A stretch of DNA of 64,000 nucleotides. Source: Glaucostegus cemiculus (taxonomy: Eukaryota). Position numbers and translations under genes: made by a program. Of the stretch, positions 1,712-62,235 are shown in pieces. Position 1 is the stretch's first letter; each line of letters begins with the position of its first letter. The notes under the pieces were generated by a model. The model was given only the letters and a program-made list of their open reading frames with translations, ran no database searches and was not told the origin of the DNA. The stretch lies in assembly GCA_976551045.1 (NCBI GenBank), contig CDPCPM010000077.1, positions 1,674,001 through 1,738,000 of the forward strand. The letters run 5' to 3'.

Positions 1712-1905
1712 GGAGATGCAGGAGAGTGCAGATGCTGGGATCTGGGGCAACACACAAGAAGCTGGAGAAACTCAGCGGGTCAGGCAACACTTGTGCGGGA
1801 AATGGATAGTCAACATTCCGGGTCCAGACCCTTCATCTGGCTGAAGTATCTCAACCTGAAACGTCGATTGTCCATTTCCCTCCACAGATGCTGCCTGACT
1901 CACTG
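1712..1905. mobile_element. Fold-back (palindromic) Penelope pLTR-derived mini-element with degenerate hammerhead at the apex
   Basis: Arm ~1771-1836 is the imperfect reverse complement of ~1841-1907. Flanked by direct repeat agcacagc(c/t)ccat at 1699-1711 and 1906-1918. Confidence 0.75.
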
Positions 1906-2569
1906 AGCACAGCTCCATTACCTGGCTGAGAAGTGTTTTAATCCTTTGGGTACTGAGTAACAAATGAAAGCATCGCACAGCAATCCAGTGAGCTGCAGAT
2001 AACAACACAGGCATCGTAATTTCTTTTTCTGTCATTGCTCACTCCATGCTATCCTCTAATTATGAATGTGCAGAGATAAAGCATTTAGCAGGACTTCAAA
2101 CAGCATTAACAAAGCACATTTAAATAAGTGATATTATCCACGATAATTTAGAAAGGGTTGGGACTGAGGTTTGACTTCATCCATATGTAGGTTTGTTTCA
2201 GACTCGGATTGAGTGCTGTTTCCTTTAATACTAGCTTGTGTGCGCCAAATGCAAGCTATAAATCCATCAGTTGACGTATTGGCAGATATAATTGAGAGAA
2301 TGTTATTGTGTATAGCAAAGCACCCTTCCCATTGTCTCTAATTACTGTTATGTGTTAGAGGAACATTCACCCAACCTCGCCTGTTTGTAGTGATGGCGCT
2401 TTGGAAATGTATTGACATCAAGATATCCCTCGGTCATTTGGTAGAACCAACCATTGAACACCGGTGGAATAACAACCAGGTCCCAAGCTGACAGAGCACA
2501 ATCCAGTCAGAAGCTCCTGTCGTCCACATGAAGATGAGGAATCCTTGTAGATACGCAATATATAAATGA

Positions 2570-11373: not shown

Positions 11374-12765
11374 GACACAAGATGCTGGAATCGTAGCAAC
11401 ACACACAAAATGCTGAAGGAACTCAGCAGGTCAGGCAGCATCTATGGAGGGAAATAAACAGTCGACGTTTCGGTCCTTCATCAGGACTGGAAAGAAAGAG
11501 GGAAGAAGCCAGAATAAAAAGGTAGGGGGAAGGAGAGGAGCACGAGCTGGCTGGTGCTAGGTGAGTTCAGGTGAGAGGGGAAAGGCAGGTGGGTGGGAGA
11601 GGAAAGGGAATGATGAGAGAAGCTGGGAGGTGATAGGTGGAAGAGGCAAAGGGCTGAAGAAGGGGGAATCCAATACGAGAGGACACTAGACCATGGAATA
11701 AAGGGTCGGAGGTGGGGAACCAGAGGGAGGGGATGGGCAGGTCATGAGGGCGGTGGGGGAAGAGCAAAGAGAAGGGGTGAGGGGGCCACAGGAAAGAAGG
11801 AAAACAAAGTGGGGAGGTGGAAGGGAGAACAGGAGGGGTTACCGCAAGTTAGAGAAATCGATGTTAATGGTGTCAGGTTGGAGACTACCAGGACGGAATA
11901 TGAAGTGTTTCTCCTCCAACCTGTATCTGGCCTCAGCGTGGCAGTAGATGAGGCTGTGGACAGATGTGTCAGCACGGGAAGTGGAATTGAGTGGCCACCA
12001 GGAGATCCTGCTTGTTGTGGCAGATAGAGTGAAGGCGCTCGGCGAAGGAGTCACCCGATCTGCGTCAGGACTCACCGATGTAGAGGAGGCGACGCCATTT
12101 ATTACTGCATGCAATAAATGACACCCTCAGATTCACAGATGAAGTGCTGCCTCACCTGGAAGGACTATCTAGGGCCCTGAATGGTGGTGAGGGAGGAGGT
12201 GTAGGGGCAGGTGTAGCACTTTGCATGTTGCAGGGATAAGTGCCAGGAGGGTGATTGATGGGGAGGGAAGAGCGGACAGTGGAGTCACAGAGAGAGCAAT
12301 CCCTATGGAAAGCGGAGAAGAGGGGGAGGGGAAGATATGATTAGTGATGGGATCCCATTGAAGATGGCAGAAGTTCCGGAGAACGATATGTTGGGTGCGG
12401 AGGCTCGTGGAGTGGTAGGTGAGGACAAGGGGAACCCTATACCTCTTATGTTGGGGAAGGGGAGGGAATAAGGTGAGGGCAGATTGTGGGAAATGGAGGA
12501 GATGTGGGTGAGGGCTGCATTGATAATGTGGAAGAGAAACTCTGTTTACAGAAAAAAGAGGACATCTCTGATGTCCTGTAATGGGAAGCCTCATCATGAG
12601 AACAGATGTGGCAGATGAACTGAGAGATGGGAATAGCATCCTTAAAAGCAATAGGGCAGGAAAAGGTGTAGTCAAAGGTAACTGTGGGAGTCAGTGGGTT
12701 TGTAGAAGATGTCGGTGGATAATCTGTCTCTGGAGATGGAAGCAGAGATCATGAAAAGGGAGGGA
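11374..12765 (-). mobile_element. Penelope-like retroelement (Neptune-type), 5'-truncated: RT thumb, Cys knuckle, GIY-YIG endonuclease, 3' UTR/pLTR
   Basis: Minus-strand peptides RVPLVLTYH..LRTQHIVLRNF.HLQ.DP..IFPSP, PGTYPCN../KCYTCPY (~12200-12250), GVIYC...LLYIGES (~12068-12126), RLEEKHFIFRPGSLQPDTINIDFSNLR*; followed by a pyrimidine-rich UTR and hammerhead motif. Confidence 0.9.
11459..11489 (-). ncRNA. Minimal type-I hammerhead ribozyme motif (core intact, stem II shortened)
   Basis: Minus strand reads CAGTC CTGATGA AGGACC GAAAC GTC GACTG: stem I CAGTC/GACTG, CUGAUGA and GAAA cores, GUC cleavage triplet; same sense as the Penelope ORF. Confidence 0.7.
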
Positions 12766-15726: not shown

Positions 15727-16287
15727 TAGCAACACACGATCTGCTGGAGGAACTCAGCGGGTCGAGCAGCATCTATTGTGAATGTTTGGGTTAAAACCCT
15801 GCATCAGGACTGAGAGTGGAGAGGGGAAATAGCCAGTATAAAGAGGGGGTGAGACAGAGATGATTGGTGGACTGAGGAGGGGTTGAAAGATGACGGACAG
15901 GTTGCAGCAGGTGGGAGAGGGGAGGGGGTCGAGTTGGGAGACATTGACAGATGGATGATAGCTGGAGGCAGATAAAGAGAAAAAAATGAGAGGCATTTGA
16001 GGGGAGGGTGAAAGTTGCAGACAACTGCTGGAGGGAGATTCACAGGAACACAAAGGGCTACCGACCGGTGCTGGAATCCGATAAATAAAGGAGGTGATGA
16101 TGGGGAAGTGGGGAAGTCTATGGGTGAACTGTGTGTGTAGCAGGTGGATGGAACCAGGAAGGGGAGGGAAGAAACATCGGCAATCCCTCACCCCCCCCCC
16201 CGCCCCTCCACAGATGCTGCTCGACCTGCTGAGTTCCTCCAGCAGATTGTAGCTCCAGATTCCAGCATCTGCAGTCTCTTGTGTCTC
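15727..16287 (-). mobile_element. Penelope 3' UTR/pLTR fragment bounded by inverted pLTR copies
   Basis: 15739-15774 atctgctggaggaactcagcgggtcgagcagcatct is inverted at ~16212-16246. Degenerate hammerhead on the minus strand at ~15781-15812 (GTC CTGATGC A GGGTT TT AACCC AAAC). Confidence 0.8.
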
Positions 16288-16944
16288 CAGACTGGAGGAT
16301 AAACTGGTACGCAAACTGACAAGAAAGCTTTCAAAGCTACATGTGGTTGCTGGAAGAACTTTGTAATTTTATCCCTGCTCCCCCCTCCAGTATTAAAGTA
16401 CTTGAGTGGTTTCAGTGATGAGATGGTATACTGCATTTTACATGGTCATCTGTCAGCCATCACTCATCGCAGTAGGTACATTCACCCCAGAGAGTCCTCA
16501 AAGTTGGATGCAGCGTCCAGCTTCCCTGTCATCAAGCTCATTGAGAGTTGTGTGTTGACACTGGGTTGTATCGCACATCACAGGAACAAACAGGAATTTC
16601 ATGCTTTGCATTCTTCTTTAAAGAGCAGGCAGCTCAGGGCATCCAGCAGGGATCAGAGGCACACGCTGTTAATGAGCAAACATTTGCTCTGCACCTTGAG
16701 ACAGCTAATAAAACCACGGTTTAACATCTCGCCCAAGCGCTGGTGTCTTTGATAGCGCAGGACTCTCTAGGCAGTCCACACCAGTAAACATGCATTCTGT
16801 CGTTCCTGGAAAGTATCCCTGAAGGTGATAAAGTAGGAGCGGGGGCAACTGACAATCGATGGCTTTGCACTGAATGTTGTCCTCTCTCTATATTATAGCC
16901 TTTGTTCATTTTTGCAGAAGAATGAAATTTTAGCATAAATTTGA

Positions 16945-17876
16945 GTCACAAAAGACTGCAGATGCTGGAATCAACAACTCTGCTTTCACCAGTCTCTCAG
17001 GCGGTGTATTCCAGGTACTCACCGATCTCTGGGTGAATGTACTCGGTGACTGAGCTGCCACGGCTCTGGTGAATTCCAAAGATCCATCACCCTAGGGGTG
17101 AAGCTTCTTCTCATCTCTGACCTGAATGGTGAAACAACCTGCAGGAGGAACTCGGCGAGTTGAGCAGCATATTCCGACTGGGAATTCTACAAACCAGTGG
17201 CATGAACATTGAGTTTTCCAGCTTTCGGTAGACCTCCTCTCTGGTGTGTTATTCCTCTTCCCCACCACCCCCCTTTCCAATCCTCCTCCCACCTTTGTCA
17301 CCCTTCCCTCCTCCCCATCCCCTTATCACCCATCTTTGCCTCCCTCCCCCTTCTTAGTTCACTCACAGGTTCCTTCCCCCCATCCCCTCCCCAATCTGGT
17401 TTTTGTTCCGTCCGCCACTCATATCTCCCTGAATGGTTCCTGCTTCACCTCCTTTACATATCAGATTCCAGCACTGGGAGTCTTATGTGTTTCTGCTAAT
17501 CACCCTCCAGGATTCACCCTCCCCTCACTTCCCCCCCACCTCACTCCCCCCACCTCACTCCATCTGCCTCCCATCTTTTTGTCTGCCTCCATCTATCAGC
17601 CACCTGCCTCTTGTCTTCCAAATCCCCCCCTTCCACACCCCTCTTCCTCAACTTGCCTGTCATTCTTCACCCCCTCCTCAGTCTACCAATCACCTACTGG
17701 CCCCTGTCTCACCACTCCCCTTTTCCTCTGTACGTGGGCTATTTCCCCCTCTCCATTCTGTCCTGATGCAGGATTTCAAACCAAAACGTTGACAATTCCT
17801 TCCCCCCCACCCTGCCCCACCCCATCACAGATGCTGCTCGACCTGCTGAGTTCCCCCAGCAGATTTTTTGTTGCTT
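16945..17876 (+). mobile_element. Penelope 3' fragment with inverted pLTR piece at its 5' end, itself interrupted by a CR1-derived segment
   Basis: Inverted pLTR pieces at 16945-16972 and 17132-17170; ORF end IFRLGILQTSGMNIEFSSFR* from ~17170; pyrimidine-rich UTR; degenerate hammerhead 17758-17795; terminal cagatgctgctcgacctgctgagttcc. Confidence 0.8.
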
Positions 17877-20012: not shown

Positions 20013-21321
20013 GATGGTATTGGTTTATTATTGTCACTTGTACCGAGGTACAGTGAAAAGCTTGTCTTACAAACTGATCATACAGGTCAATTCATTACAC
20101 AGTGCAGTTACACTGAGTCAGTACAGAGTACATTGATGTAGTGCAGATAAAAACAATAACAGGACAGAGCAAAGTGTCACAGCTACAGAGAAAGTGCAGT
20201 GCAATATGGTGCGAAGTCACAACAAGGTAGATCGTGAGGTCAGAGTCCATCTCATTGTATAAGGGAACTGTTCAATAGTCTTATCATAGTGGGGGTAGAA
20301 GCTGTCCTTAAGTCTGGTGATATGTGCCTTCAGGCTCCTGTATTTTCTATCCAATGGAAGAGGAGAGAAGAGAGAATGACCTGGGTGGGTGAGGTCTTTG
20401 ATCATGCTGGCTGCTTCACCAAGACAGCGAGAGGTAAAGATAGAGTCCAAGGATGGGAGGCTGGTGTCTGTAATGTGCTGGGCTGTGTCCACAGCTCTCT
20501 GCAGTTTCTTGCGGTCCTGGGTAGAGCAGTTGCCGTACCAAGCCATGATACATCCAGATAGGATGCTTTCTGTAGTGCATTGATAAAAGTTGGTGACAGT
20601 CAAAGGAGAAAAAACAAATTTCCTTAGCCTCCTAAGGAAGTAGAGGCACTGGTGAGCTTTCTTGGCAGTGGCATCTACATGATTTGACCAGGACAGGCTG
20701 TTGGTGATGTTCACATCCAGGAACTTGAAGCTCTCAACCCTCTCGACCTCAGCACCATTGATGTAGACAGGTGCATGTACACTGCCCCCTTTCCTAAAGT
20801 CAATGACCAGCTCTTTTGTTGACATTGAGGGAAAGGTTGTTGTCATGACACCGTTCCATTGAGCTCTCTACCTCCTTCCTGTACTCTGACTCATCGCTGT
20901 TTGCGATATGGCCTACAATGGTGGTATCATCTGCAAACTTGTAGATGGAGTTCGAGCAGAATCTGGCCACACACAGTCATGAGTGTATAGGGAGTAGAGT
21001 AGAGGGCTGAGGACGCAGCCTTGTGGGGCACCAGTGTTGAGAATTATCGTGCCGGAGGTATTGCTGCCTATCCTCACTGATTGCAGTCTGTTTGTTAGAA
21101 AGTCAAGGATCCAGTTACAGAGGGAGGTATTGAGTCCTAGGTCTCGGAGTTTGGTGACAAGCTTGCTTGGGATCATTGTATTGAAGACAGAGCTGGAGTC
21201 AATAGATAATTGTCTAACATAGGTGTCTTTACTGTCCAGATGCTCCAGAGCTGAGTGGAGGGCCAGGGAGATGGATTCCACTGTAGTCCTGTTTCGGCAG
21301 TAGGCGAATTGCAATGGGTTC
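20013..21321 (-). mobile_element. Rex1/Babar LINE, 5'-truncated (RT domain to 3' UTR), frameshifted
   Basis: [63 protein letters not shown]; TKELVIDFRK..VERVESFKFL..LSWSNH..KKAHQCLYFLRRLRKF..ESILSGCI.AWYGNC. Confidence 0.93.
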
Positions 21322-21687
21322 AAATGGCAAATAAATTAAACAGTTATCTTGCATCAGTCTTCACAGTATAGGATACACAAAACATCCCAGAAATAGTTGT
21401 AAATCTGGAATTGGAAGGGAGAAGGACTAGAGAAAATTGCAATCACCATGGCAATGATAGGGAGCAAAATGTCGGAGCCACAGGCTGACAAATGCCGAGG
21501 TCCTGATCAACTTCATTCCAGGAACTTAAGAGAAGAGGTCGATATGGGTAATTAGACCACAAGACATAGGAGCAGAATTAGGCCATTCAGCCCTTCGAGT
21601 CTGCTCCTGAAGAGCAGAGTTGATGTGTTAGATTTTATGTCCCAAAATCTCCTGGATTCAGGGTAAGTTGCATTAGGTTGGAAAATC

Positions 21688-22520: not shown

Positions 22521-22784
22521 GCACCTTTCAGCAGGAGATGTGAACTACTACATGCAGCCCTGGACTTCCGACCTCCAACTGGGGTCATTGGCTGTTCCTT
22601 CCAGCGGGTCAGAACCAGAGATAGTTGTGTGATGGGATTTTCATGGCAGTGTCCAATCTGTGCACGGCCCTTGGTTAATGTTATTGTCATGCAAGTGGTG
22701 GCCAGGGGTTACTCTGTAGCCTCAATGTTAAATGCTGTTGAAACCTCAACAGGCGTGATGGAGGTGACCAGGATTCTAATGCAG

Positions 22785-22882
22785 ACGTTAGAGAGACTGC
22801 AGATGCTGGAAATCTGGAAACACAAACACAAAATGCTGCAGGAACTCAGCAGGTCAGGCAGCATCTGTGGAGGGAAATGAAC
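22785..22882 (-). mobile_element. Solo Penelope pLTR tail (part downstream of the hammerhead cleavage site)
   Basis: gactgcagatgctggaaatctgg..ggaactcagcaggtcaggcagcatctgtggagggaaatgaac; possible TSD attctaa at 22773-22779 and 22883-22889. Confidence 0.75.
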
Positions 22883-23551
22883 ATTCTAAAGGATGTGGCA
22901 GAATATAGTGATGTCTTTCTTCATATATCAGCCTCCACAGTGACTGTTGGCACAACTGGTGAGAGGAATGTCTTTGCCCACATATTGGTGAGGCAGTACC
23001 ACTGTGTCATCCAGCCATCCCATTCTGATATTCTTCTGGAAATTAATGAATTCCAGCTTCATTTGGGAAGTCTATTTCTATCTGAATTAGGGGTGGGTTG
23101 GGGAAGGAATAGCAGATAGCAGGTTTGCAGTAAAATAGCAGATCAGTGCGTTGCAAGAAACATCAATAAAGAAACAAATTAAATCAACAAATCCCATCAA
23201 TCTCTCCACCTTCCTGTCTCTCGCAGTGATAGAAATCTTGGATGCCCATTATCTACTGGCAAGAACATATCTAGTGGTAGTTTACAAAGAATTGGATCGA
23301 TGATGCCATCTTGTCATCAGAAACATAGTTAGTCATCTGTAAAGTGCCTTGAATCTTCTGTGTAACGGGTACTGTTAGTGTTTTCACTACCTACTGAAAT
23401 AATGTAAAATTAAGGTAGGAACAAGCTGAGTAGGAGTTTGCAGAATGTAAGCTGCATACATGTCCTCCTGCATGATCTGTTTATTACAGGTGAGCAAGAG
23501 TTGAAAGTCCATGTTCTAGTATACATGAGGCTAAAGCAGGATCTAAAATGG

Positions 23552-23935
23552 CTAAAATATTGAATTCTCCCACTTTGGGTAATCCCCACAATCCCCCCCC
23601 CCCACCCCCCATGCTTCTTCTCTTCTTCCCTTTCCTAGCCTTTTTTCCTCTTTTACCTTTGACCCATCCCCCGGTGGATCTGCTCTCCACTCCTCCCCCA
23701 CACATGCCCATCACTGTCTCTTACCTGCATCTACCTAACACCACCCTGTGCCCACCCGGCCTCCCCTCTTTTGTTCACCTATCACCGCTCTGTTTTTCCC
23801 TTCTATATATTGGGCTTCCCCTTTTCCTACCTTCAGTCCTGAGGAAGGGTCCTGACCCGAAACGTTGACCGCCTGCATTTCTCCACGGATGCTGCCTGGC
23901 CTGCTGAGTTCCTCCAGCATCATCATGTTTCTCAT
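23552..23935 (+). mobile_element. Short, relatively young Penelope 3' fragment with near-intact hammerhead
   Basis: ORF end aatattgaattctcccactttgggtaa (NIEFSHFG*), pyrimidine UTR, hammerhead, pLTR tail. TSD caggatct(g)aaaatgg at 23537-23551 and 23936-23951. Confidence 0.85.
23834..23871 (+). ncRNA. Minimal type-I hammerhead ribozyme motif (best-preserved copy)
   Basis: CAGTC CTGAGGA A GGGTC CT GACCC GAAAC GTT GACCG: CUGANGA core, extra A after A9, 5-bp stem II, GAAA, loopless palindromic stem III (ACGT), GUU triplet, stem I 4/5 paired. Confidence 0.75.
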
Positions 23936-24769
23936 CAGGATCTGAAAATGGTTTTACTTATTGAAATCCAGGGAAATGTTGTGATTTTTAATTGACTTTT
24001 GGTGGACTGTAACTTCTTTTCCAGTAAAATCTGAGTTCCTTGTGGGACATTTGTGCGTTTACTGTTAAGCTGAAAGGTGACACAAAGGAATTGAAGCCAC
24101 TACTATCTTTTAAAAATAGCATTCCACTGAGATGCAATCGAGATCAGCAAAGGAGCAGGGAAGTAGATTATTACATTGATATCTGTTAATCAGCCCCCAG
24201 AGCAAGGTTGATCTTTGCAACAACTGATTGTCAGTGCACTGTAAAAGGAAAGCATTCTGAATGTTTGTTTAGTGCCCAGTAAAGCCAGCTTTCCTACTGA
24301 TGAATACTTTGAGCAGAGTAAACAAAACAAGATATTGTGTATGATTTATCTCTGCACTGAGGAATAGGGCACACCAGTGTGAAGCTTAGTGTTAGGCTCT
24401 GGCAGAAAGCTGGACTGTGGCAATATTGTAACGCACTGTGTGACAAGATACATGCACACTTCTTATCAGTGTTAGAAAATTCCACTTGAATGTTAGCCAC
24501 ATGCTAGTTACTTCTCTGTTTGACAACACTGAGAGCATTTGCTTGCTTCTCAGTAGTGTCACTTTATAAGTCATTTTATCATTCGATTGTAAATTCTTCA
24601 GCTTTTTCTAAAGTATGCTGTGAAGTTCATTTCTAATCCACTGAGATTGGTTTCCATAAAAAAGACATCCTTAGCTACCCCACTAAAATGGAAAGAGCCA
24701 GAACTGCTGTCTCTCAGCACGTGGTCGTTATGTGCTGTGTGATAGATTTTGAAATTGAGAATCAGTCGT

Positions 24770-42094: not shown

Positions 42095-42270
42095 AAAAAT
42101 AAAAAATACTGGAAACACTCAGCAGGTCAGGCAGCATCTGTGGAACGAGAAACAGCTAACAGTTCAGATCCAGGATCCGTTGTCAGAACTGGGAAAGGGA
42201 GAAGGCAAGTTAGTCCAGGTGGCAGCGAAGGTGGAGGGGGCAATGGGTGGAATAAAGGAATGCCAAATGA
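42095..42270 (-). mobile_element. Penelope pLTR fragment with degenerate hammerhead
   Basis: ctggaaacactcagcaggtcaggcagcatctgtgga; minus strand AGTT CTGACAA C GGATC CTG GATCT GAAC at ~42162-42190. Confidence 0.7.
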
Positions 42271-42730: not shown

Positions 42731-42911
42731 TACCAGAAAAAAAGGTCAGACGCTAGAAATAGCTCTACACCATTTTCTCCAGCGTTCGGTGCTGTGGGTC
42801 ACCCTATCAGTATTTGTGAAAGCCGTACAAAGCGCCAGAACCTCAGCTGTGAGCTTCACAGAATGGCATGTTGCGTAAAATCAAACTAAAATTGACATTG
42901 TTGGCTTTGGT

Positions 42912-45420
42912 GCAGGATGTGGGGTACAAATTACAACAGGAGATAGAAAAGGCATGTAAAAAGGGCAATGTTATGGTGGTCATGGGGGATTTCGATATGC
43001 AGGTAGATTGGGAAAATCAGACTGATACTGGATCCCAAGAGAAGGAATTTGTAGAATACCTACAAGATGGCTTTTTAGAGTGGCTTGTGGTTGAGCCCAC
43101 TGGGGGAAAGGCAATTCTGGATTTGGTGTTGTGCAATGAACCAGATTTGATCAGGGACTTGAGGAAAAAGGAACCCTTAGGAGACAGTGATCGTAATATG
43201 ATAGAATTCACCCTGCATCTTGAGAAGGAGAAGCTAAAATCTGATGTACCAGTATTACAGTTGTGTAAAGGTAACTACAGAAGCATGAGAGAGGAGCTGG
43301 CCAAAGTTGATTGGAAGGAGACCCTAGCAGGGATGACAGTAGAGCAGCAATGGCAGGATTTTCTGGGAGTGATTCAGAAGACGCAGGATCAGTTCATCCC
43401 AAAGAAGCAGAAGCATTCTAAAGGGAAGATGAGGCAACCATGGATGACAAGGGCAGTCAAAGACAGCATAAAAGCAAAAGAGAGGGCATACAATATTGCT
43501 GAACTTAGTGGAAAGCTAGAGGATCAGGAAACTTTTAAAAACCAAAAGAAGGCAACTAAAAAGGCAATAAGGGGAGAAAAGACAAAATATGAAGGTAAGC
43601 TAGCCAATAATATAAAAGAGGATACCAAAAGTTTTTTCAGATATATAAAGAGTGAAAGAGAGGGAAGAGTGGATATCGGACTGCTGGAAAATGATGCTGG
43701 AGAGATAGTAATGGAGAACAAAGAAATGGTGGAGGAACTGAATAAGTATTTTGTGTCAGTCTTCACTGTGAAAGACACCAGCAACGTGCCAGAAATTTGA
43801 GAGAATCAGGGAGTAGAAGTGAGTGTAGCCATTATTATTAAGGAGAAGGTGCTTTGGGAAGCAGAAAGGTCTGAAGGTAGGTAAGTCACCTGGACCGCAT
43901 GGACTATACCCCAGGGTTCTTAAAAGGAAGCTGAGAGATTGCGGAGGCATTAGTAGTGATCTTTTAAGAATCATTAGATTCAGGAATGGTTCCGTAGGAC
44001 TGGAAAATCACAAATGTCACTTCACTGTTTAAGGAGAGATGGAAGCAAAAGACAGGAAATTATAGGCCATTTAGCCTGACTTAAGTGGTTGGTAAGATGT
44101 TAGACTCCATTATTAAGGATGAGGTTTCGAGGTACTTGGAAGCACATGATAAAAGAGGCCGAAGTCAGCATGGTTTCTTTGAGGAGAGATCTTGCCTGAC
44201 AAATCTGTTGGAATTCTTTGAGGAAGTAATGGGCAGGGTAGACAAAGGAGAGTCAGTGGATGTTGCTTGGATTTTCAGAAGGCTCTTGACAAGGTGCCAC
44301 ACATGAGGCTGCTAAACAAGATAGAAGCCCATGGTGTTACAGTAAAGGTACTAGCATGGATAGAAAATTGGCTGACTGGCTGAAGGCAAAGACTGGGAAC
44401 AAAGGGGACCTTTCCTGAGGCTGCCGGAGACTAGTGGTGTTCCGCAGTGGTCAGTACTGGGTCCCCTACTTTTCATATTATATGTCAATGATCTGGATGA
44501 CAGAATTGATGGCTTTGTGGCCAAGTTTGCAGATGTTACAAGGATAGGTAGAGGGGCAGGTAATGTTGAGGGAGCAGGGAGTCTGCAGAAGGACTTGGGC
44601 AGGTTGGGAGAATTGGCAAACGAATGACAGATGGAATACAGTGTAGGGAAGTGTACGGTCATGCACTTTGATAGAAAGGATAAAGGTGCAGACTATTTTC
44701 TAAAATAAGAGCAAATTCAGAAACCAGAGGTGCAAAAAGACTTGGGAATCTGAATGCAGGATTCCCTAAAGGTTAACTTGTAGGTTGATTCAGTAGTAAG
44801 GAAGTCAAATGCAATGTTAGCAATCATTTCGAGAGGACTAGAATATAAAATCAAGGATGTAATGCTGAGGCTTTATAAAGCATTGGTCAGACCATATTTG
44901 GAGTATTGTGAGCAGTTTTGGGCCCTATATCTAAGGAAGGATGTGCTGGCATTGGAGAGGTTCCAGAGGAGGTTTTACAAGAATGATCCTGGGAATGAAA
45001 GGGTTAACATACAAGGAGCATTTGATGGCTCTGGGCCTGTACTCACTGGAGATTAAAAGGACGAGGGGGGATCTCATTGAAACCTACCAAATATTGAAAT
45101 GCTTGGATAGAGTGGACATGGAGAGGATGTTTCCAGTAGTGGGAGAGTCTAGGATCAGAAGGCACAGCCTCAGAAGAGAAGGACATCCCTTTAGAACTCA
45201 GATGAGAAGGAATTTCTTTAGTCAGAGGCTGGTAATTCTGTGGAATTCATTGCCACGAATGGCTGTGGAGGCCAAGTCATTGGGTATATTTAAAGTGGAG
45301 GTTGATAGGTTCTTGATTAGTAAGAGCATCAAAAGTTACAGGGAGAAGGCAGGAGATTGGGATTGAAAGGGAAAAGTAAATCTGCCATGATTGAATGTCT
45401 AATTCTACTCCTATGTTTTA
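42912..45420 (+). mobile_element. CR1 LINE, ~2.5 kb 5'-truncated copy (end of endonuclease, RT, tail), with stops and frameshifts
   Basis: VMGDFD..LDLVLCNEP..PLGDSD..PWMT..KSFFRYIK..LNKYFVSVFT; GNYRPFSLT; SQHGF..RSCLTNLLEFFEEV; tttgcagatg (FAD); LYKALVRPYLEYCEQFW; MRRNFFSQRLVILWNSLP. Confidence 0.95.
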
Positions 45421-45857: not shown

Positions 45858-46421
45858 GCCAAAAACAAACTGCTGGAGGAAATCAATGGGTCAAACAGCA
45901 TCTGTGGAGACCAACCTTGTCAAAATGCACCTAGATACAATAAGCTATCTTTGTTAGTCACATGGACATCGAAACACATACCGAAATGTATCTTCTGCGT
46001 AGAGTGTTCTGGGGGCAGACCGCAAGTGTCGCCACGCTTCTGGCGCCAACATAGAATGCCCACAACTTCCTAACCTGCACGTCTTTGGAATGTGGGAGGA
46101 AACAGGAGCACCCAGAGGAAACCCACGCAGACACAGGGAGAACATACATACTCATTACAGACAGCGGCCAGAATTGAACCTGGGTCATTGGCGCTGTAAA
46201 ACATTACGCTAACCGCTACACTACCGTGCCTCATTAAAAGCCTCGACTTCTCCACTCCGCTCACCCACGCCAACCTCACCCCTCTGAGCAAGCAGCTCTC
46301 CACTTACTCTGCACCAATCCCAACCTTGTCAAACGTCTCCACAGATGTTGCTTAACCCATTGGATTCCTCCAGCACTTTGGTTTTTTGCTCCAGATTCCA
46401 GCATCTGCAGCCTCCTGTGTC
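45858..46421. mobile_element. Fold-back Penelope pLTR element with a ~410-bp central insert
   Basis: 45871-45910 (tgctggaggaaatcaatgggtcaaacagcatctgtggaga) is inverted at 46336-46375. Direct repeat ccaaccttgtcaaa at 45911-45924 and 46320-46333. Confidence 0.75.
45945..46230 (-). mobile_element. Young V-SINE with Rex1-like tail, full length
   Basis: Reverse complement of 49224-49521; ends ..gctaaccgctacactaccgtgcc. Confidence 0.9.
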
Positions 46422-47034
46422 TAGGTTATTGGTGACTGAGTGCCATCTGACAGCACTGTTGATGACACCTTCCATCACTTTGCTACTCATTGAGAGTAGA
46501 CTGGGCGAAATGAGCTTAGTTAGATTTGTCCCGCTTTGGTGAACAGGCCATCCCTGAGCAATTTTCCACCTTGGGTAGATTCCTGGATTATAACCGTACT
46601 GAAGCAGCCTTGGTAGAAGCATAGCTAGTTCTGGAGCACGTCTTCAATATTCCGGCACAGATATTCCCTGGACCCGTAACCTTTACTGTATCCAGTGCTC
46701 TGAGCTATGGAATGAATCAAATTGGTTAAGGGCTGACCTGTGATGTTTGAGATCTCAGAAGAAGGCCAGAGACCTACACTGCTCACTCTGGCTGAACATG
46801 GTTGCTTTAACTTCCTCTTCAGCACTAACCTGCTGGGTCCTGCCATTGTCTTCAGCAACTCCTCATCCCATGAGCTGTTTAATTGTCCACCACCATTCAC
46901 AACTAGTTGTAGAAGAACAGCAGAACATTGATTCGATCCACTGGTTGTGAGATCACTTAGCTCTCTGCGTACTGTTTTATTTTTCCTTATGGTATGTATT
47001 ATCATCCTGAATTATAGCTTCACCAGACAAGAAT

Positions 47035-48459: not shown

Positions 48460-49015
48460 GGGACACAAGATTCTGCAGATGCTGGAATCTGGAGCAACAC
48501 ACAAAATATAAGATGATGAGAGGTATGGATCGGCTAGATAGTCAAAGGCTTTTCCCCAGGGCTGAAATGGTGGCCACAAGAGGAGATAGGTTTAAGGTGC
48601 TGGGGGAAGATATAGGGGAGATGTTAGGGGTAAGTTTTTTACTCAGGGAGTGGTGAGTGCGTGGAATGGACTGCCAGAGATGGTGGTGGAAGCGGATACG
48701 ATAGGGTCTTTCAAGAGACTGTTGGATAGGTACATGGAGGTAAATAAGATAGAAGGCTATGGGTAAGCCTAATAGTGTGGGGACATGTTCAGCACAGCTT
48801 TGTGGGCCGAAGGTCCTGAATTGTGCTGTAGGTATCTATGTTCTATGCTCTAAAAAGTGCTGAAGAACCTAGCAGGTCAGGCAGTGTCTATGGAGGGAAA
48901 TAAACAGTCGACGTTTCGGGTCGAGTCCTGATGAAGCGTCAACCGTTTATTTCTCTCCATAGATGCTGCCTGACCAGCTGAGTTCCTCCAGCACTTTTTG
49001 AGTGTGTTGCTCCAT
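48460..49015. mobile_element. Fold-back Penelope pLTR mini-element interrupted by a CR1 3' fragment (48507-48851)
   Basis: Arms ~48853-48915 and ~48937-49000 are inverted; the apex holds hammerhead pieces (cagtcgacgtttcgggtcga / gtcctgatgaag). Perfect TSD tttgttataca at 48449-48459 and 49016-49026. Confidence 0.85.
48507..48851 (+). mobile_element. CR1 3' fragment
   Basis: YKMMRGMDRLDSQRLFPRAEMVATRGDRFKVLG..; tail gtgggccgaaggtcctg..tctatgttctatg. Confidence 0.9.
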
Positions 49016-52744: not shown

Positions 52745-53375
52745 GAAAAAAAAATGCAGATGCTGGAAATCTAAAATAAAACCAGAAAGTGCTGGAAATA
52801 CTCAGCAGGTCAGGCCACACCTGTGGGAAGAGGAACAGAGTTAATGTTTCAGGTCAAAGACCCTTCATCAGAATTGTGAAAGAGATAAAAGAACCTTGTT
52901 AATTGCAGGACAGGTGGGGAAGGAGGGTAAAACCATGGGGATAAGCTGTAAACAAGGTTATCTGGTCAATGAGTGAATGGGAGCAAATAGAGAGCAGGGG
53001 ACATTGACAAAAGAATGTAGGAGTTGCAAAATGCAGAGCAGGAAGATGTGCCCGGCAGTTCAGGCTGGGTATGTCCTCCACTTCCAGTGCAAATAAAAAG
53101 GGAAAAAAAGGGAGCAAAAAAACAAACAAGCCGAGCCAATATCACAGACAGATGACTGATACTGTCAGAAATCAAGTTACCTGAAGTTGTAGAATTTCAT
53201 GGTGAGTTGAGAAGGCTGTATCGAACCCAGGTGGAAGATGAGGTGCTGTTCCAGAAGCTAGCCTTGGACCTCATTGTAACAGTTCACGAAAGCATAGACT
53301 GATAGGTCAAAGTGAGAGTGAAGGTGTTGGGTAACAGGAAGCTCAGGGTCACTCCTACAGACTGAATGTAGGTAC
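52745..53375 (-). mobile_element. Penelope 3' fragment (ORF end, UTR, hammerhead, pLTR tail)
   Basis: Minus strand EQHLIFHLGSIQPSQLTMKFYNFR* (~53177-53252), then UTR and pLTR ctgacctgctgagtatttccagca..atttccagcatctgca. Confidence 0.85.
52839..52875 (-). ncRNA. Hammerhead ribozyme motif (core and stem II intact, stems I and III decayed)
   Basis: Minus strand AATT CTGATGA A GGGTC TTT GACCT GAAAC ATT AACT. Confidence 0.6.
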
Positions 53376-53494
53376 TTGATTTTTGCTTTCCTCTATTATA
53401 TCAGTGATTGCATCTGACAAGTTGTTTACTCTGAAAGGGACACAAAAGGTGCTATATAGATCCAAGACCTTTTCAGTTTACTCAGTGTTCTTTT

Positions 53495-54300
53495 ACGTTA
53501 GAACATAAGTAAACAGAGCAGGAGTAGGCTATATGGCTCTTCAAACCTGCTCCACCATTCACCGAGAACATAACGGATCTTCCACCTCAGTGTCATTTTC
53601 CAACACTATCTCCATATCCTTTGATTCTCTTATTGCCCAGAAATCATTCTCAATGAACTGACTGACTGGACTTCCATAACTGTCTGGGATAGAGAATTTC
53701 AAAGGCTCACCACCTTCTGAGTGAAGAAGTATCTCCTCATCTCAATCCTAAACAGTTTGTCCCTTATTTACAAACTGCTACCTGGGTCTAGACTCCTCAG
53801 TCAGGGGAAAACACCCTTCCTGCATCAAACTTGTCAAACCCTTTTAACAATTTCAATGATATCTTCTCTCATGTTTTTTTAAAACTAAAGAATGCAGTCC
53901 ATGTATACTCATCTTTCCTCATATGGCAAACCTGCCATCCCTGGTACCAGTCCAATAAACCTTCACCTAAGTCCCTCTGCTCCCTTTTTTGTTTCCTTTT
54001 TTTTGCTGTGGAAATGGAGGACATACACAGGCTGACCTGCTGGGCATGTCTTCCTGCTCTGCATTTTGCAGTTCCTACATTCTTTTGTCAATGTCCCCAC
54101 TCTCTATTTGCTCCCATTCACTCATTGACCAGATAAACCTTGATTACAGCTTATCCCCATGGGTTTACCCTCCTTCCCCACCTGCCCTGCAGTTAACAAG
54201 CTTCTTTTGTCCCTTTCCTAGTTCTGACGAAAGGTCTTCCATTCCACGTAAAGAGACAAAAACTATCCACAATACTCCAGGTGCAGTCTTACCATTTCAT
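53495..54300 (-). mobile_element. Old CR1 3' fragment containing an inverted copy of nearby Penelope UTR (53979-54238)
   Basis: Tail agaacataag..gagcaggagtaggc..; ctgggatagagaatttcaaagg; CR1 resumes after 54240 with aactatccacaatactccaggtgcagtcttacca. Confidence 0.7.
53979..54238 (+). repeat. Inverted duplicate of 52857-53115
   Basis: For example, ctctctatttgctcccattcactcattgaccagataa and tacagcttatccccatgg are exact reverse complements of segments in 52933-52994. Confidence 0.9.
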
Positions 54301-55440: not shown

Positions 55441-55612
55441 GCAGGTCAGGCAGCATCTATGGAGAGAAATAAACAGTTGATGCTTCATCAGGTCTCGACC
55501 CAAAATATCGACTGTTTATTTCTCTCCATAGATTCTGCCTGACCTGCTGAGTTCCTCCAGCATTTTGTGTGTGTTGCTCCAGATTCCAGCATTTGCAGAA
55601 TCTCTTGTGTCT
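55441..55612. mobile_element. Fold-back Penelope pLTR mini-element
   Basis: gcaggtcaggcagcatctatggagagaaataaacagt (55441-55477) pairs with actgtttatttctctccatagattctgcctgacctgc (55511-55547); apex cttcatcag/gtctcgaccc. TSD aaagggtttga at 55430-55440 and 55616-55626. Confidence 0.85.
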
Positions 55613-56233
55613 GGAAAAGGGTTTGATGGTCCACTCAGCCTCTGACACTTTATTAGCCCATTTTACCTCTGGCTACATTACTAATGTAAATCCAACTGAG
55701 AATAAATTTATATGAAGAGTTTATCATTTGATTGGGAGGCCAAAACACTTCATTATCTTTTATTGCCCTTTGCATTTCCCACTGCAAATTGCAAAATAAT
55801 GGACACATTATTTATATTAGTTTTTTTATTATATGTGTTCAGCAGGAATTATCACTTTGATTCATCTTTCAACACCTTGTTTAAAAATAGCATTTCAAGT
55901 TTAAGGTGATCAGTTGGAATAATGTGCAAGATCTGGTGAGATAGTCATGTTCTATTGTACTGTATCCCTATTTAGTTTCAAGGAAAATAGTTTGATACAG
56001 ACAGGAATGTTGAAGAGATTCGTGGACTTATTCCCTCCAGGGTAACGCCAGGCAGGGGACATAAAAGATTGGACTAAAAAATCTTAGTTTGTCTGACTCT
56101 GAATTCCAATGGTAATATTGAGAATATAATTAGCTTTGTAAGTCCTATTTTAAAAGAAAGAAAATGCTCAGTTTGAAAGCTGACAGAAAATCTTTCGGTG
56201 CTCAAAAACAGTTAATGACCTTTCTTCTTAAAG

Positions 56234-56497
56234 GTATGAAACGGCCATTAAGTCCTCCTCTGCCTCCTGAAAGTGGTGATGCAGATGCTTCCTTGGTGAA
56301 CGAGGATGTCACGGAGTTGCAATCTGTTACCACAGACAGCGCACAGAAGCGAGAAAGAAAACTCCAGACTTTCACTCTTTGTGGGGTTTGTAACATTCAG
56401 CTCAACTCTGCCGCTCAGGCCCAGATCCACTACAATGGCAAATCCCACCAAAAACGACTTAAAAAGCTTCATAATGGAAAAATGCCCACAAGCCAAG
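56234..56497 (+). CDS. ZNF385C: Coding exon of a ZNF385-family RNA-binding zinc finger gene, most like ZNF385C (first matrin/U1-type finger)
   Basis: Acceptor ...atgacctttcttcttaaAG|GT ATG at 56232-56233 and donor CAAG|GTAAGG at 56498; 264 nt, phase 1-1. Translation MKRPLSPPLPPES...KRERKLQTFTLCGVCNIQLNSAAQAQIHYNGKSHQKRLKKL contains C-x2-C-x12-H-x5-H. The MKRPLSPP start and KRERK..TLC.VCNIQLNSAAQAQ.H match my recollection of the long ZNF385C isoform. Family assignment is firm; the paralogue is less certain. Confidence 0.85.
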
Positions 56498-57235
56498 GTA
56501 AGGTTGGAATGAGGTGTGCTGAGAAAAAGGGGTTTCCCATAAACCAGTACATCTGGTTCATCCTTTAACAAAAGCAACCCAATTAGGTGAACTACTCACA
56601 GAGAGAAATAAGGTTCATTGTCATGGTATTAATCATGTGTGTGAGAAGGGGAGTTATCCCTGTTGATGACTTATTGCTTGTCCAGGAAAGATTACTCTTA
56701 AAGGATCCATTATGGCTAATTGTTAAGTTTACGTTATCCTTTGGAAAGAAGGGAGTTTTGAGCATTAACTGTGAACAGGGATGGAAAACATCGATTACAC
56801 CTCTAGGCTCACATCTGCCTCTGAAACAAGATGTCACTCCTTTGCATGAGAGGCTGGCTACTTCCCATCTCTGCCATGTCTCTGTTCTAAGAAATGGCCA
56901 TGAGTTTCTTTATAGTTCATCCTTCTCCATGACTCCAGTAGCAGAATGATGCTGTGAATTGGTTGATGCAGCAAGACCACCAATTGGGAATTCCCTGGCC
57001 ACTTCCGATTCTGAGATTTGTTATTTATTTGTCCACATACTGCCAAGGTTCCAAATCTGTGCTTTGAGAGAGGTAAGTGAGAAAATGTATTCACAGAATC
57101 TGACTTGTCACCACTGTCCAAAGGAAAGAAGGGGATAGGTAAACCACAGGCAGAGTCCCTGAGTGAACCATTTGGCCCAGGGAAAGTAAAGGAATTCACG
57201 TCAGCTTGGACTTTGCACTGTTGTATTACAATACA

Positions 57236-60521: not shown

Positions 60522-60790
60522 GGAGACACACAAGAGTGTGGATGCTGGAATCTGGAGCAAAAAAAACGAGCTACTGGAGGAATTCAATGCATTGGGGGGC
60601 AGTTGTGGAGGGAAATGGATAGTTTCGGGTCAAGACCCTTTCTCTAGACTAGGGTAGAGGGGAGATGGCCAGTGTAAAAAGCTAAGAGGGAGAGGCGTGG
60701 CAAGAGCTGGCAAACAATAGATGGGTCCAGGTGAGGAGGGATTGATTGGCAGATGGAGTGATGCGGCACAGTGAAGAGTGGAGACAGCAA
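60522..60790 (-). mobile_element. Decayed Penelope pLTR/UTR fragment
   Basis: gatgctggaatctggagc..ctggaggaattcaa..gtggagggaaatgga..gtttcgggtcaagaccctt: hammerhead stem II and GAAAC retained, CUGAUGA lost. Confidence 0.7.
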
Positions 60791-60934: not shown

Positions 60935-62235
60935 AGTCCATTATTAAGGTTGAGGTTTTGGGGTACTTGGAAGCTCACAATAAAAGAGGCTGAAGTCAGC
61001 ATGGTTTCCTTGAGGGGAAATCTTGCCTGACAAATCTGTTGGAATTCTTTGAGGAAGTAACAGGCAGGATAGACAAAGGAGAGTCAGTGGATGTTGTTTA
61101 CTTGGATTTTCAGAAAACCTTTGACAAGGTGCCACACATGAGGCTGCTAAACAGAATAGATGGTGTCACAGGAAAGGTACTAACATGGATAGAAAATTGG
61201 CTGACTGGCAGAAGGCAAAGAGTGGGAATAAAGGGGGCCTTTCCTGGTTGGCTGCCTGTGATTAGTGGTGTTCCACAAGGGTCGGTGTTGGGACCACTAC
61301 TTTTCACATTATCTCGATGACAGAATCGAGGGCTTTGTGGCCAGGTTTGCAGGTGTTACAAAGATAGGTGGAGGGGCAGGTAATGTTGAGGAAGCAGGGA
61401 GTCTGCAGAAGGACTTGGGCAGGTTGGGAGAATGGGTAAAGAAGTGGCAGATGGAATACAGTGTAGTGAAGTGTACGGTCATGCACTTTGGTAGAAGGAA
61501 TAAAGGTGTAGACTGTTTTCTAAATGGGGGTACGAATTCAGAAACCAGACGTGCAAAGGGAGAGTCCTAGTGCAGGATTCCCTAAAGGTTAACTTGCAGG
61601 TTGAGTCAGTAGTAAGGAAGGTAAATGCAATGTTAGCATTCATTTCGAGAGGACCAGAATATAAAATCAAGGATGTAATGCTGAGGTTTTTTGTTGGTCA
61701 GACCACATTTGGAATATTATGAGCAGTTTTGGGCCCCATAGCCAAGGAAGGATGTGCTGGCATTGGAGAGGGTCCAGGGGAGGTTTACAGTAATGATCCT
61801 GGAAATGAAATGTATGAGGCGCCTTTGATAGTTCTGGGCCTGTACTCACTGAAGTTTAGAAGGATAAGGGGGGATTCTCATTGAAACCTACCGAATATTG
61901 AAAGTCCTGGATAGAGTGGATGTGGAGAGGATGTTTCCAGTAGTGGAAGAGTCTTGGACCAGAGGGCACAGCCTCAGAATAGAAGGACGTCCCAGAATAG
62001 AGATGAGGAGGAATTTCTTTAGCCATTGCCACAGACAGTTGTGGAGGCCAAGTCATTGAGTATATTTAAGGCGGAGGTTTTTGGTCCTTGATTAGTAAGG
62101 GAGTCAAAGGTTACAGGGAGCAGGCAGGAGATTGGGGTTGAGAGGGAAAAATAAATCAGCCTTGATTGAATGGTGGACCTGACTCGATGAGCCGAATGGC
62201 CTATTTCTGCTCCCATATCTTATAGTCTTATGTTC
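60935..62235 (+). mobile_element. CR1 5'-truncated copy, same subfamily as 42912-45420
   Basis: EFFEEVTGRIDKGESVDVVYLDFQKTFDKVPH.RLL..WIENWLTGRRQRVGI..SGVPQGSVLGPLLF; long near-identical stretches with 44100-45420; tail gagccgaatggcctatttctgctcccatatcttatagtcttatg. Confidence 0.95.

Follow-up and report, generated by a model that had tools for sequence, protein, structure and literature searches.

The hammerhead motif considered here (23834-23871, plus strand) lies in a solo insertion of a Penelope-like element (PLE) that is truncated at its 5′ end and flanked by a target-site duplication. The features of this insertion and of its relatives in the window, i.e., the whole 64-kb stretch of DNA that was analyzed, are collected in Table 1. 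The two copies of the duplication align locally with a score of 12, for which the null values are 0.003 in random 46-nt windows and 5e-5 in 25-nt windows; the G missing from the left copy is present in a contig of organism C, a relative. In two DNA runs, read depth is single-copy outside 23548-23950 and 4 to 5 orders higher inside, with the jump into the repeat falling in the bin 23548-23578; the depth ratio at the motif bin, 5 x 10^4 to 1 x 10^5, is a rough indication, since depths summed over contigs do not give a copy number. The insertion starts with the end of the PLE ORF (stop codon at 23580-82), which aligns with the ORF ends of the copies at 17758, 11459, and 52839. A previous, sequence-only reading of this DNA had put the motif just downstream of ORF ends. 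It is indeed downstream, but the distance is about 250 nt in this copy (hereafter, the index copy) and 300, 350, and 530 nt in others, the ORF end being demonstrated for 4 of the 9 core-bearing copies.

Table 1. Features of the index insertion and of related sequences in the window.
Feature	Position	Strand	Remarks
5′-truncated solo PLE insertion	23552-23935	+	384 bp
Left target-site duplication	23537..23551	+	15 bp, one G short of right copy
Right target-site duplication	23936..23951	+	16 bp; single-copy depth from 23951
Last PLE ORF codons and stop	23552..23582	+	NIEFSHFG, then stop; at the 5′ truncation point
Pyrimidine-rich 3′ UTR / pLTR body	23583..23833	+	251 nt, high-copy depth throughout
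Stem I	23834-38 with 23867-71	+	4/5 pairs; A.C mismatch 23835/23870
Core CUGAGGA (C3-A9)	23839-45	+	
Extra A between 9 and 10.1	A23846	+	
Stem II	23847-51 with 23854-58	+	includes G10.1-C11.1 pair, G23847-C23858
GAAA (G12-A15.1)	23859-62	+	
C15.2, G16.2, U16.1, U17	U17 = 23866	+	predicted cut after 23866
Conserved downstream segment to short 3′ end	23872..23935	+	64 nt
Hammerhead copy	11459..11489	-	stem II removed by 8-nt deletion
Second-subfamily hammerhead copy	52839..52875	-	core retained; ACAT for palindrome; stem I 3/5 pairs
ORF end of 52839 copy	53177-53380	-	
Decayed copy	17758..17795	+	A9 to C, G12 to A
ORF end of 17758 copy	~17170-17231		
Inverted tail of 17758 copy	17132-17170		
Decayed copy	15781..15817	-	A9 to C, G12 to A, cut-site deletion
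Inverted tail of 15781 copy	16163-16295		
Decayed copy	42152..42190	-	G8 to A, A15.1 to C; compensatory stem changes
Decayed copy	60612..60650	-	three core changes and a deletion
Inverted pair	1715..1907	-	decayed full motif 1809-1842(-) and partial forward arm
Copy ending within stem II, without tail	54221..54238	+	
Hairpin mini-element without intact core	55441..55611	+	15-bp duplication 55426-40 / 55612-26
Second hairpin mini-element, same centre	48460..49015	-	11-bp duplication 48449-59 / 49016-26
Decayed PLE ORF remnant	11839..12745	-	RT C-terminal part, Cys linker, GIY-YIG endonuclease

Every base of the motif is as the sequence-only reading gave it, including stem III, which is reduced to the loopless palindrome ACGU (23862-65), with positions 15.2-16.2 palindromic as a minimal hammerhead (min-HHR) requires. 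All 11 core letters (CUGANGA ... GAAA ... UH) are present, and the PLE min-HHR consensus, in the form in which it appears in Fig S3 of PMC4209133, is fully satisfied. Thus, judged by its letters, 23834-23871 is a complete minimal hammerhead-ribozyme motif of the published PLE kind. A full descriptor finds the index copy as its single match in the window, against a mean of 0.005 in shuffled windows (a match in 1 of 200 shuffles); the descriptor is based on the published consensus but was composed after the motif had been seen, so the enrichment is somewhat generous. Rfam models gave eight matches at E ≤ 5, none of them to a hammerhead family. With 8 matches in the window against 7.48 expected, the bare core pattern shows no enrichment. 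When the index copy is folded with its native flanks, pair probabilities are at most 0.01 for stem I and 0.07-0.34 for stem II. The only motif difference among those listed for the family reads is at N7, where G is replaced by A in 70-82% of them; the index copy thus departs from about 80% of family reads at this position.

Downstream of the motif, the conserved segment 23872..23935 holds a 4-bp hairpin with one compensatory change; a longer tail hairpin drawn by eye was dropped, as RNAalifold retained just 4 pairs. Most copies carry a pyrimidine run, CAG, and an ATG about 20 nt past the cut site (23872-23891 in the index copy, where the acceptor-like AG is mutated). PLEs are known to have an intron in the pLTR.

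A family profile built from 12 copies has 22 matches in the window at E ≤ 1, 21 of them at E < 0.01, which by rough spans occupy about 8% of it. The abundance claimed earlier (about 10 traces in 64 kb) therefore holds, with a count that is if anything low; likewise, all coordinates in that copy list contain family sequence, and the three stem II variants quoted (GGGTC/GACCC, GGGTT/AACCC, GGATC/GATCT) are all present. The family can be called ribozyme-bearing, but most of its traces cannot: the core region is present in nine copies, and the index copy is the sole intact one. Two others that had been counted as copies of the motif, at 11459-11489 and 52839-52875, are broken. At least two core changes are found in each of the copies at 17758, 15781, 42162, 1840, and 60622, and 5 of 7 other aligned copies do not keep all 11 core positions, as the index copy does. 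Such retention is compatible with youth or chance, and also with constraint. The copies at 17758-17795(+) and 15781-15817(-) belong to the same subfamily and have in common the changes A9 to C and G12 to A (a CpG site), the former hinting, from their sequences, at the spread of a master whose core was dead.

The structure of these copies is typical of PLEs: 5′ truncation, an inverted 5′ copy, and an optional 30-40 bp tail at one end are all seen. Among 18 listed 3′ ends, 10 enter a long tail and 6, including that of the index copy, stop about 35-40 nt earlier, the remaining two being ambiguous in one case and split by an insertion in the other; in inverted units, one arm has the long end and the other a short or clipped one. 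Target-site duplications are clear in 2 of 13 units, borderline (scores 9-10) in 2, and not evident in 9; among further comparisons, the one for the unit at 48460-49015 was positive, and four more gave none. Neither a head-to-tail array nor a full pLTR-ORF-pLTR tandem occurs in the window. The tail-only copy at 22780-22886(-) starts about 4 nt or less from the predicted cut site and has a 7-bp flanking repeat of weak significance; it is the one copy that could derive from cleaved RNA. At 45862-46425, an inverted tail pair surrounds an unrelated repeat of about 290 bp, with a 14-base stretch repeated on either side. Other retroelement fragments (LINE-like ORFs and 3′ ends, identified by eye) lie at 48513-48851, 42853-43800, 20217-21335, and 60994-61570.

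Two units in the window, one at 55441-55611 and the other at 48460-49015, consist of the PLE downstream segment arranged as a near-perfect hairpin and are identical at 112 of 127 positions; the latter is split by a later insertion of about 340 bp, another retroelement fragment. Their common centre is scrambled, with half of the core inverted and stem II skipped on one arm, and neither strand of either unit carries an intact core. Each has a duplication of its own (15 and 11 bp), and the two were inserted separately. The simpler reading of their sequences, which we hold with some preference, is that both come from a shared ribozyme-less master, and the hairpins possibly represent a ribozyme-less non-autonomous family. 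An idea that the hairpin was copied from both strands was dropped, as one arm is split by the later insertion.

The stems of the motif covary among the local copies. When 8 of the 9 core-bearing copies are aligned (54221 and partial arms excluded), 85.5% of 76 stem cells are paired vs 77.2 ± 2.1 in shuffles, none of 500 of which reaches this value, and 5 of 10 pairs, from stems I and II, show changes on both sides (reached by 6 of 500 shuffles); as the copies are related by descent, these shuffle figures are not probabilities. Only 16-39% of cells are paired in slid-register controls, while the count of further pair types is not above shuffles (7 vs 7.4). The G10.1-C11.1 pair is retained, as GC or GU, in all eight copies. 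The earlier statement that stem II pairing survives sequence change is thereby upheld, and stem I covaries as well. Agreement with the majority letter is 74/85 in the core, 54/61 in stem II, and 59/79 in stem I, compared with 119/181 in the 30 columns upstream and 335/384 (0.87) in the downstream segment, so that among the window copies the core is no better kept than the segment that follows it.

The second line of evidence comes from metagenomes, which were scanned with a pattern that fixes the core and stem II and leaves stem I and position 17 free. The scan yielded 96 loci; 96 matches were scored (two at contig edges were skipped), of which 70 are distinct, although a few families dominate the set, and the 70 matches are therefore not 70 independent cases. 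Position 17 is C in 60, U in 9, and G in 1 of the distinct matches. At the first three pairs of stem I, 84-86% of matches have Watson-Crick pairing, with letters that differ from those of the window. Stem I has a mean of 3.14 of 4 pairs vs 2.62 ± 0.07 with partners shuffled; a slide of +2 also gives 2.61 pairs, because the metagenome stem I is a dinucleotide repeat. A tblastn match to a PLE-like protein was found at 33 of 96 loci and lies on the motif strand at 29, where it is upstream of the motif in 28 and ends 56-166 nt before it in 25. At one locus (L001:1501-1526), the motif is upstream of a same-strand PLE-like ORF match, as in a 5′ pLTR. A scan with a 23-base tail motif gave no metagenome match. 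A chance resemblance within a repeat, for which the unenriched bare core and the silence of the Rfam hammerhead models might speak, deserves practically no credence, considering the descriptor count (1 vs 0.005), the covariation, and the match to a published consensus in its published position; the metagenome families together with the covariation refute it for practical purposes.

The window family is tied to a coding PLE by the remnant at 11839-12745(-), in spite of several stops and frameshifts, one of which is spanned by its Cys linker. The remnant retrieved 34 protein relatives; eight of these were traced to their sources, which are rays, a skate, and whale shark. One relative, P0002, matches the remnant with E 1e-24 (tblastn) and contains RT motifs, a Cys linker, and a GIY-YIG-type region. 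The 54 long relatives of P0002 include 41 with PF00078 and 16 with PF01541, which we take to be RT and GIY-YIG, respectively; a CX2-5CxxC linker is present in P0002 and in 52 of the 54, and DKG/DKA in 52 of the 54. Direct Pfam scans were negative both for the decayed frames (0 of 12 PLE-frame translations) and for RT or GIY-YIG in 16 relatives, P0002 included, and a word-indexed search with the decayed frame gave none among 5254 candidates. None of the 54 full-length relatives begins with the tail peptide, the one motif match being internal, which does not favor the tail as an ORF start. As judged from these sequences, the remnant would place the family among EN+ PLEs. The combination of linker and motifs points to Neptune or Nematis in the portion of PMC8557442 consulted, and Neptune and Poseidon are the vertebrate PLE clades listed in the accessible part of a preprint (bioRxiv 10.64898/2026.07.22.740005); from its linker motif, the family probably belongs to the Neptune clade. 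Two annotated proteins, P0014 (neuromedin-U receptor 1, Rhinoraja) and P0026 (LAMP3 isoform X2, Hypanus), have C-termini that match the C-terminus of the PLE endonuclease; these ends would be exonised repeats or gene-model errors. Taken together, the minimal type-I hammerhead in the 3′ pLTR of an abundant PLE family, as proposed by the sequence-only reading, is backed by anatomy, covariation, protein relatives, and read depth, its anatomy, duplication, ORF link, covariation, and abundance being matters of observation.

Whether such a ribozyme cuts is a separate question. Motifs of this kind are described, in the text available of PMC4209133, as having no activity as monomers and low activity as dimers. 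For the Anolis element PAc, the corresponding sections of PMC11167929 report that cleavage by the hammerhead requires the element's protein and that insertion is normal when the core is mutated. They further describe two downstream RT starts, by which the tail is defined, and find no RNA-seq reads with ends at the site. In the window, 8 of the 9 core-bearing copies have sequence from both sides of the cut site, two with a small deletion there; thus, the templates were either uncut or religated at the site, and the continuity of the copies cannot separate these two states. RNA of organism C, of which 18% and 24% of each of two runs were read, gave 9626 and 13286 reads on the element in both directions. 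No place, the cut site included, gathered read ends up to the threshold of one fifth of depth in either run, and the depth step across the site is 2.46 and 2.28 in RNA vs 1.58 and 2.35 in DNA; this test, made in a relative, is insensitive and would miss rare cleavage. The window holds no second intact motif, the nearest same-strand core being mutated and 6 kb upstream. The lone index copy is probably inert.

The reading that we favor, at a probability of roughly 0.74, is that the index copy is a complete hammerhead in a dead 384-bp PLE stump, that its parent cuts slowly as a dimer joined through ACGU and aided by protein, and that the lone copy is inert. According to this proposal, a tandem parent transcript would carry two motifs, between which helix III would form via ACGU; the paired motifs could then cut after GUH, likely slowly and probably with the element's protein. 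RT would begin at either of two sites that lie about 35-40 nt from each other and 65-105 nt past the cut, and would copy RNA left uncut at the motif, which is proposed to be why the copies run through the site into the UTR. Premature 5′ joining would have left the 384-bp stump, and the index copy, having competing folds and no intact partner nearby, would decay like its neighbors. By analogy, the two classes of 3′ ends match the two RT starts given in the available text of PMC11167929, and the window as a whole fits the published picture of a ribozyme that works slowly, is assisted by dimerization and protein, and is dispensable for insertion.

The same continuity through the site is predicted if the dimer cleaves tandems to unit length and a ligated circle, in which the site is restored, serves as the template, as proposed in the accessible part of PMC4209133. 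The conservation of core and stem II between subfamilies, in excess of the upstream columns, suits this cut-and-circle route. Nevertheless, we regard it as unlikely: the portion of PMC11167929 at hand describes normal insertion by core mutants in vitro and a lack of reads ending at the site, two hairpin elements devoid of an intact core were inserted separately in the window, and the expected head-to-tail array is absent there. Less likely still is that cleavage has become vestigial in the family and that the fold persists as a signal without catalysis, be it for protein binding, as a promoter, or in a splice context. The downstream segment conserved like the core, the A9 to C change common to two copies of one subfamily, and the acceptor-like stretch with ATG would agree with such a role, as would the Naiad PLEs, which thrive without hammerheads according to the available part of PMC8557442. 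Against it, shark-type families and distant metagenome ones alike retain the catalytic letters in addition to the helices, with a letter other than G at position 17 in 69/70, and related motifs cleave in vitro as dimers in the parts of PMC4209133 available.

The sequence-only reading further supposed that sense copies such as this one are transcribed inside ZNF385C pre-mRNA. This gained no support: the first annotated coding exon lies 32 kb downstream, and no exon upstream of it turned up in the window. In elasmobranchs, the exon, 56236-56499(+), matches proteins that bear the name ZNF385C or D, with 89-94% identity, and its tetrapod matches are mostly ZNF385C; for two of four proteins, the exon corresponds to the sequence from residue 1 on. 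No other ZNF385 exon was found in the window, except in one gene model, which incorporates the repeat at 55517-55682. There, a PLE tail and flank match the N-terminus of the Narcine ZNF385 gene model P0093 (weakly, E 0.086) at a site 550 bp upstream of the first coding exon, suggesting, from the sequence match, an old orthologous insertion or a gene-model artefact. In the two runs of the relative, RNA reads are all but absent from the unique flanks of the index insertion (bin depth < 1), and 3 of the 9 core-bearing copies are in sense with the exon, which is no significant orientation bias (p = 0.51). Co-option of the index copy by the host to cut ZNF385C pre-mRNA would be in keeping with its sense orientation, its perfect core, and the probable presence of the insertion in organisms A and C (junction contigs); we consider it very improbable in view of the missing partner copy, the stem I mismatch, the minority N7, the near absence of RNA reads on the flanks, and the 3:6 ratio of sense to antisense copies. 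Hardly more probable is a wider scheme, in which solo motifs among some 10^5 dispersed copies, transcribed on both strands, would pair in trans via ACGU and cut host pre-mRNAs. If true, such pairing, with the element's protein helping in the germ line, would amount to a genome-wide ribozyme network in rays and sharks.

Among known systems, the closest are the min-HHRs that Cervera and De la Pena described in 2014 from pLTRs of metazoan PLEs (PMC4209133), which, in the material seen from that paper, resemble the window motif in CUGANGA-H, G10.1-C11.1, GAAA, the loopless palindrome CG, and UH, in a helix I of 4-5 bp and a U-rich upstream flank, and in being mostly solo copies in truncated elements. 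The layout is that of its Acropora Neptune example, and helix II has 4-5 bp, as in Acropora and Crassostrea, unlike the 7-8 bp of Schistosoma. No shark or ray is among its 31 Table S1 rows or the Fig S3 rows inspected. With PAc, as described by Frangieh et al. in 2024 in the available text of PMC11167929, the window family shares a hammerhead upstream of two 3′ end sites, a tail of 30-40 nt, copies that run through the cut site, and a lack of RNA-seq ends there; PAc, however, is a Poseidon element with the ORF start inside stem II, whereas the linker motif of the window points to Neptune. The Neptune clade, as summarised by Craig et al. (2021) in the part of PMC8557442 consulted, likewise has a C-terminal GIY-YIG, a CX2-5CxxC linker, 5′ truncation, an inverted 5′ copy, and a tail at one end only; it differs in that the window has no full element or tandem, and the linker is also common to Nematis.

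Non-LTR retrozymes, as presented in the accessible part of bioRxiv 10.64898/2026.07.22.740005, are type I and PLE-derived like the window motif and are reported in one chondrichthyan genome. They are tandem units, each with a hammerhead, whereas the window copies are dispersed, several with ORF ends; with one intact motif and no head-to-tail units, the window family does not qualify as a retrozyme. Nevertheless, the chondrichthyan family of that preprint may be the same as the family in the window. The few papers retrieved on Penelope elements in sharks and elasmobranchs have nothing on this motif, judging by titles or the starts of abstracts. The motif is thus of a known kind, for which we found no detailed description in the cartilaginous-fish lineage. 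The index copy does not settle the purpose of PLE hammerheads, and the ribozyme-less hairpin derivative is, in our opinion, the less ordinary lead. The window supports, at the genomic level, what was found in vitro in 2024, namely, that insertion can do without the hammerhead in cis, and it adds cartilaginous fish, with their enormous family, to the min-HHR observation of 2014.
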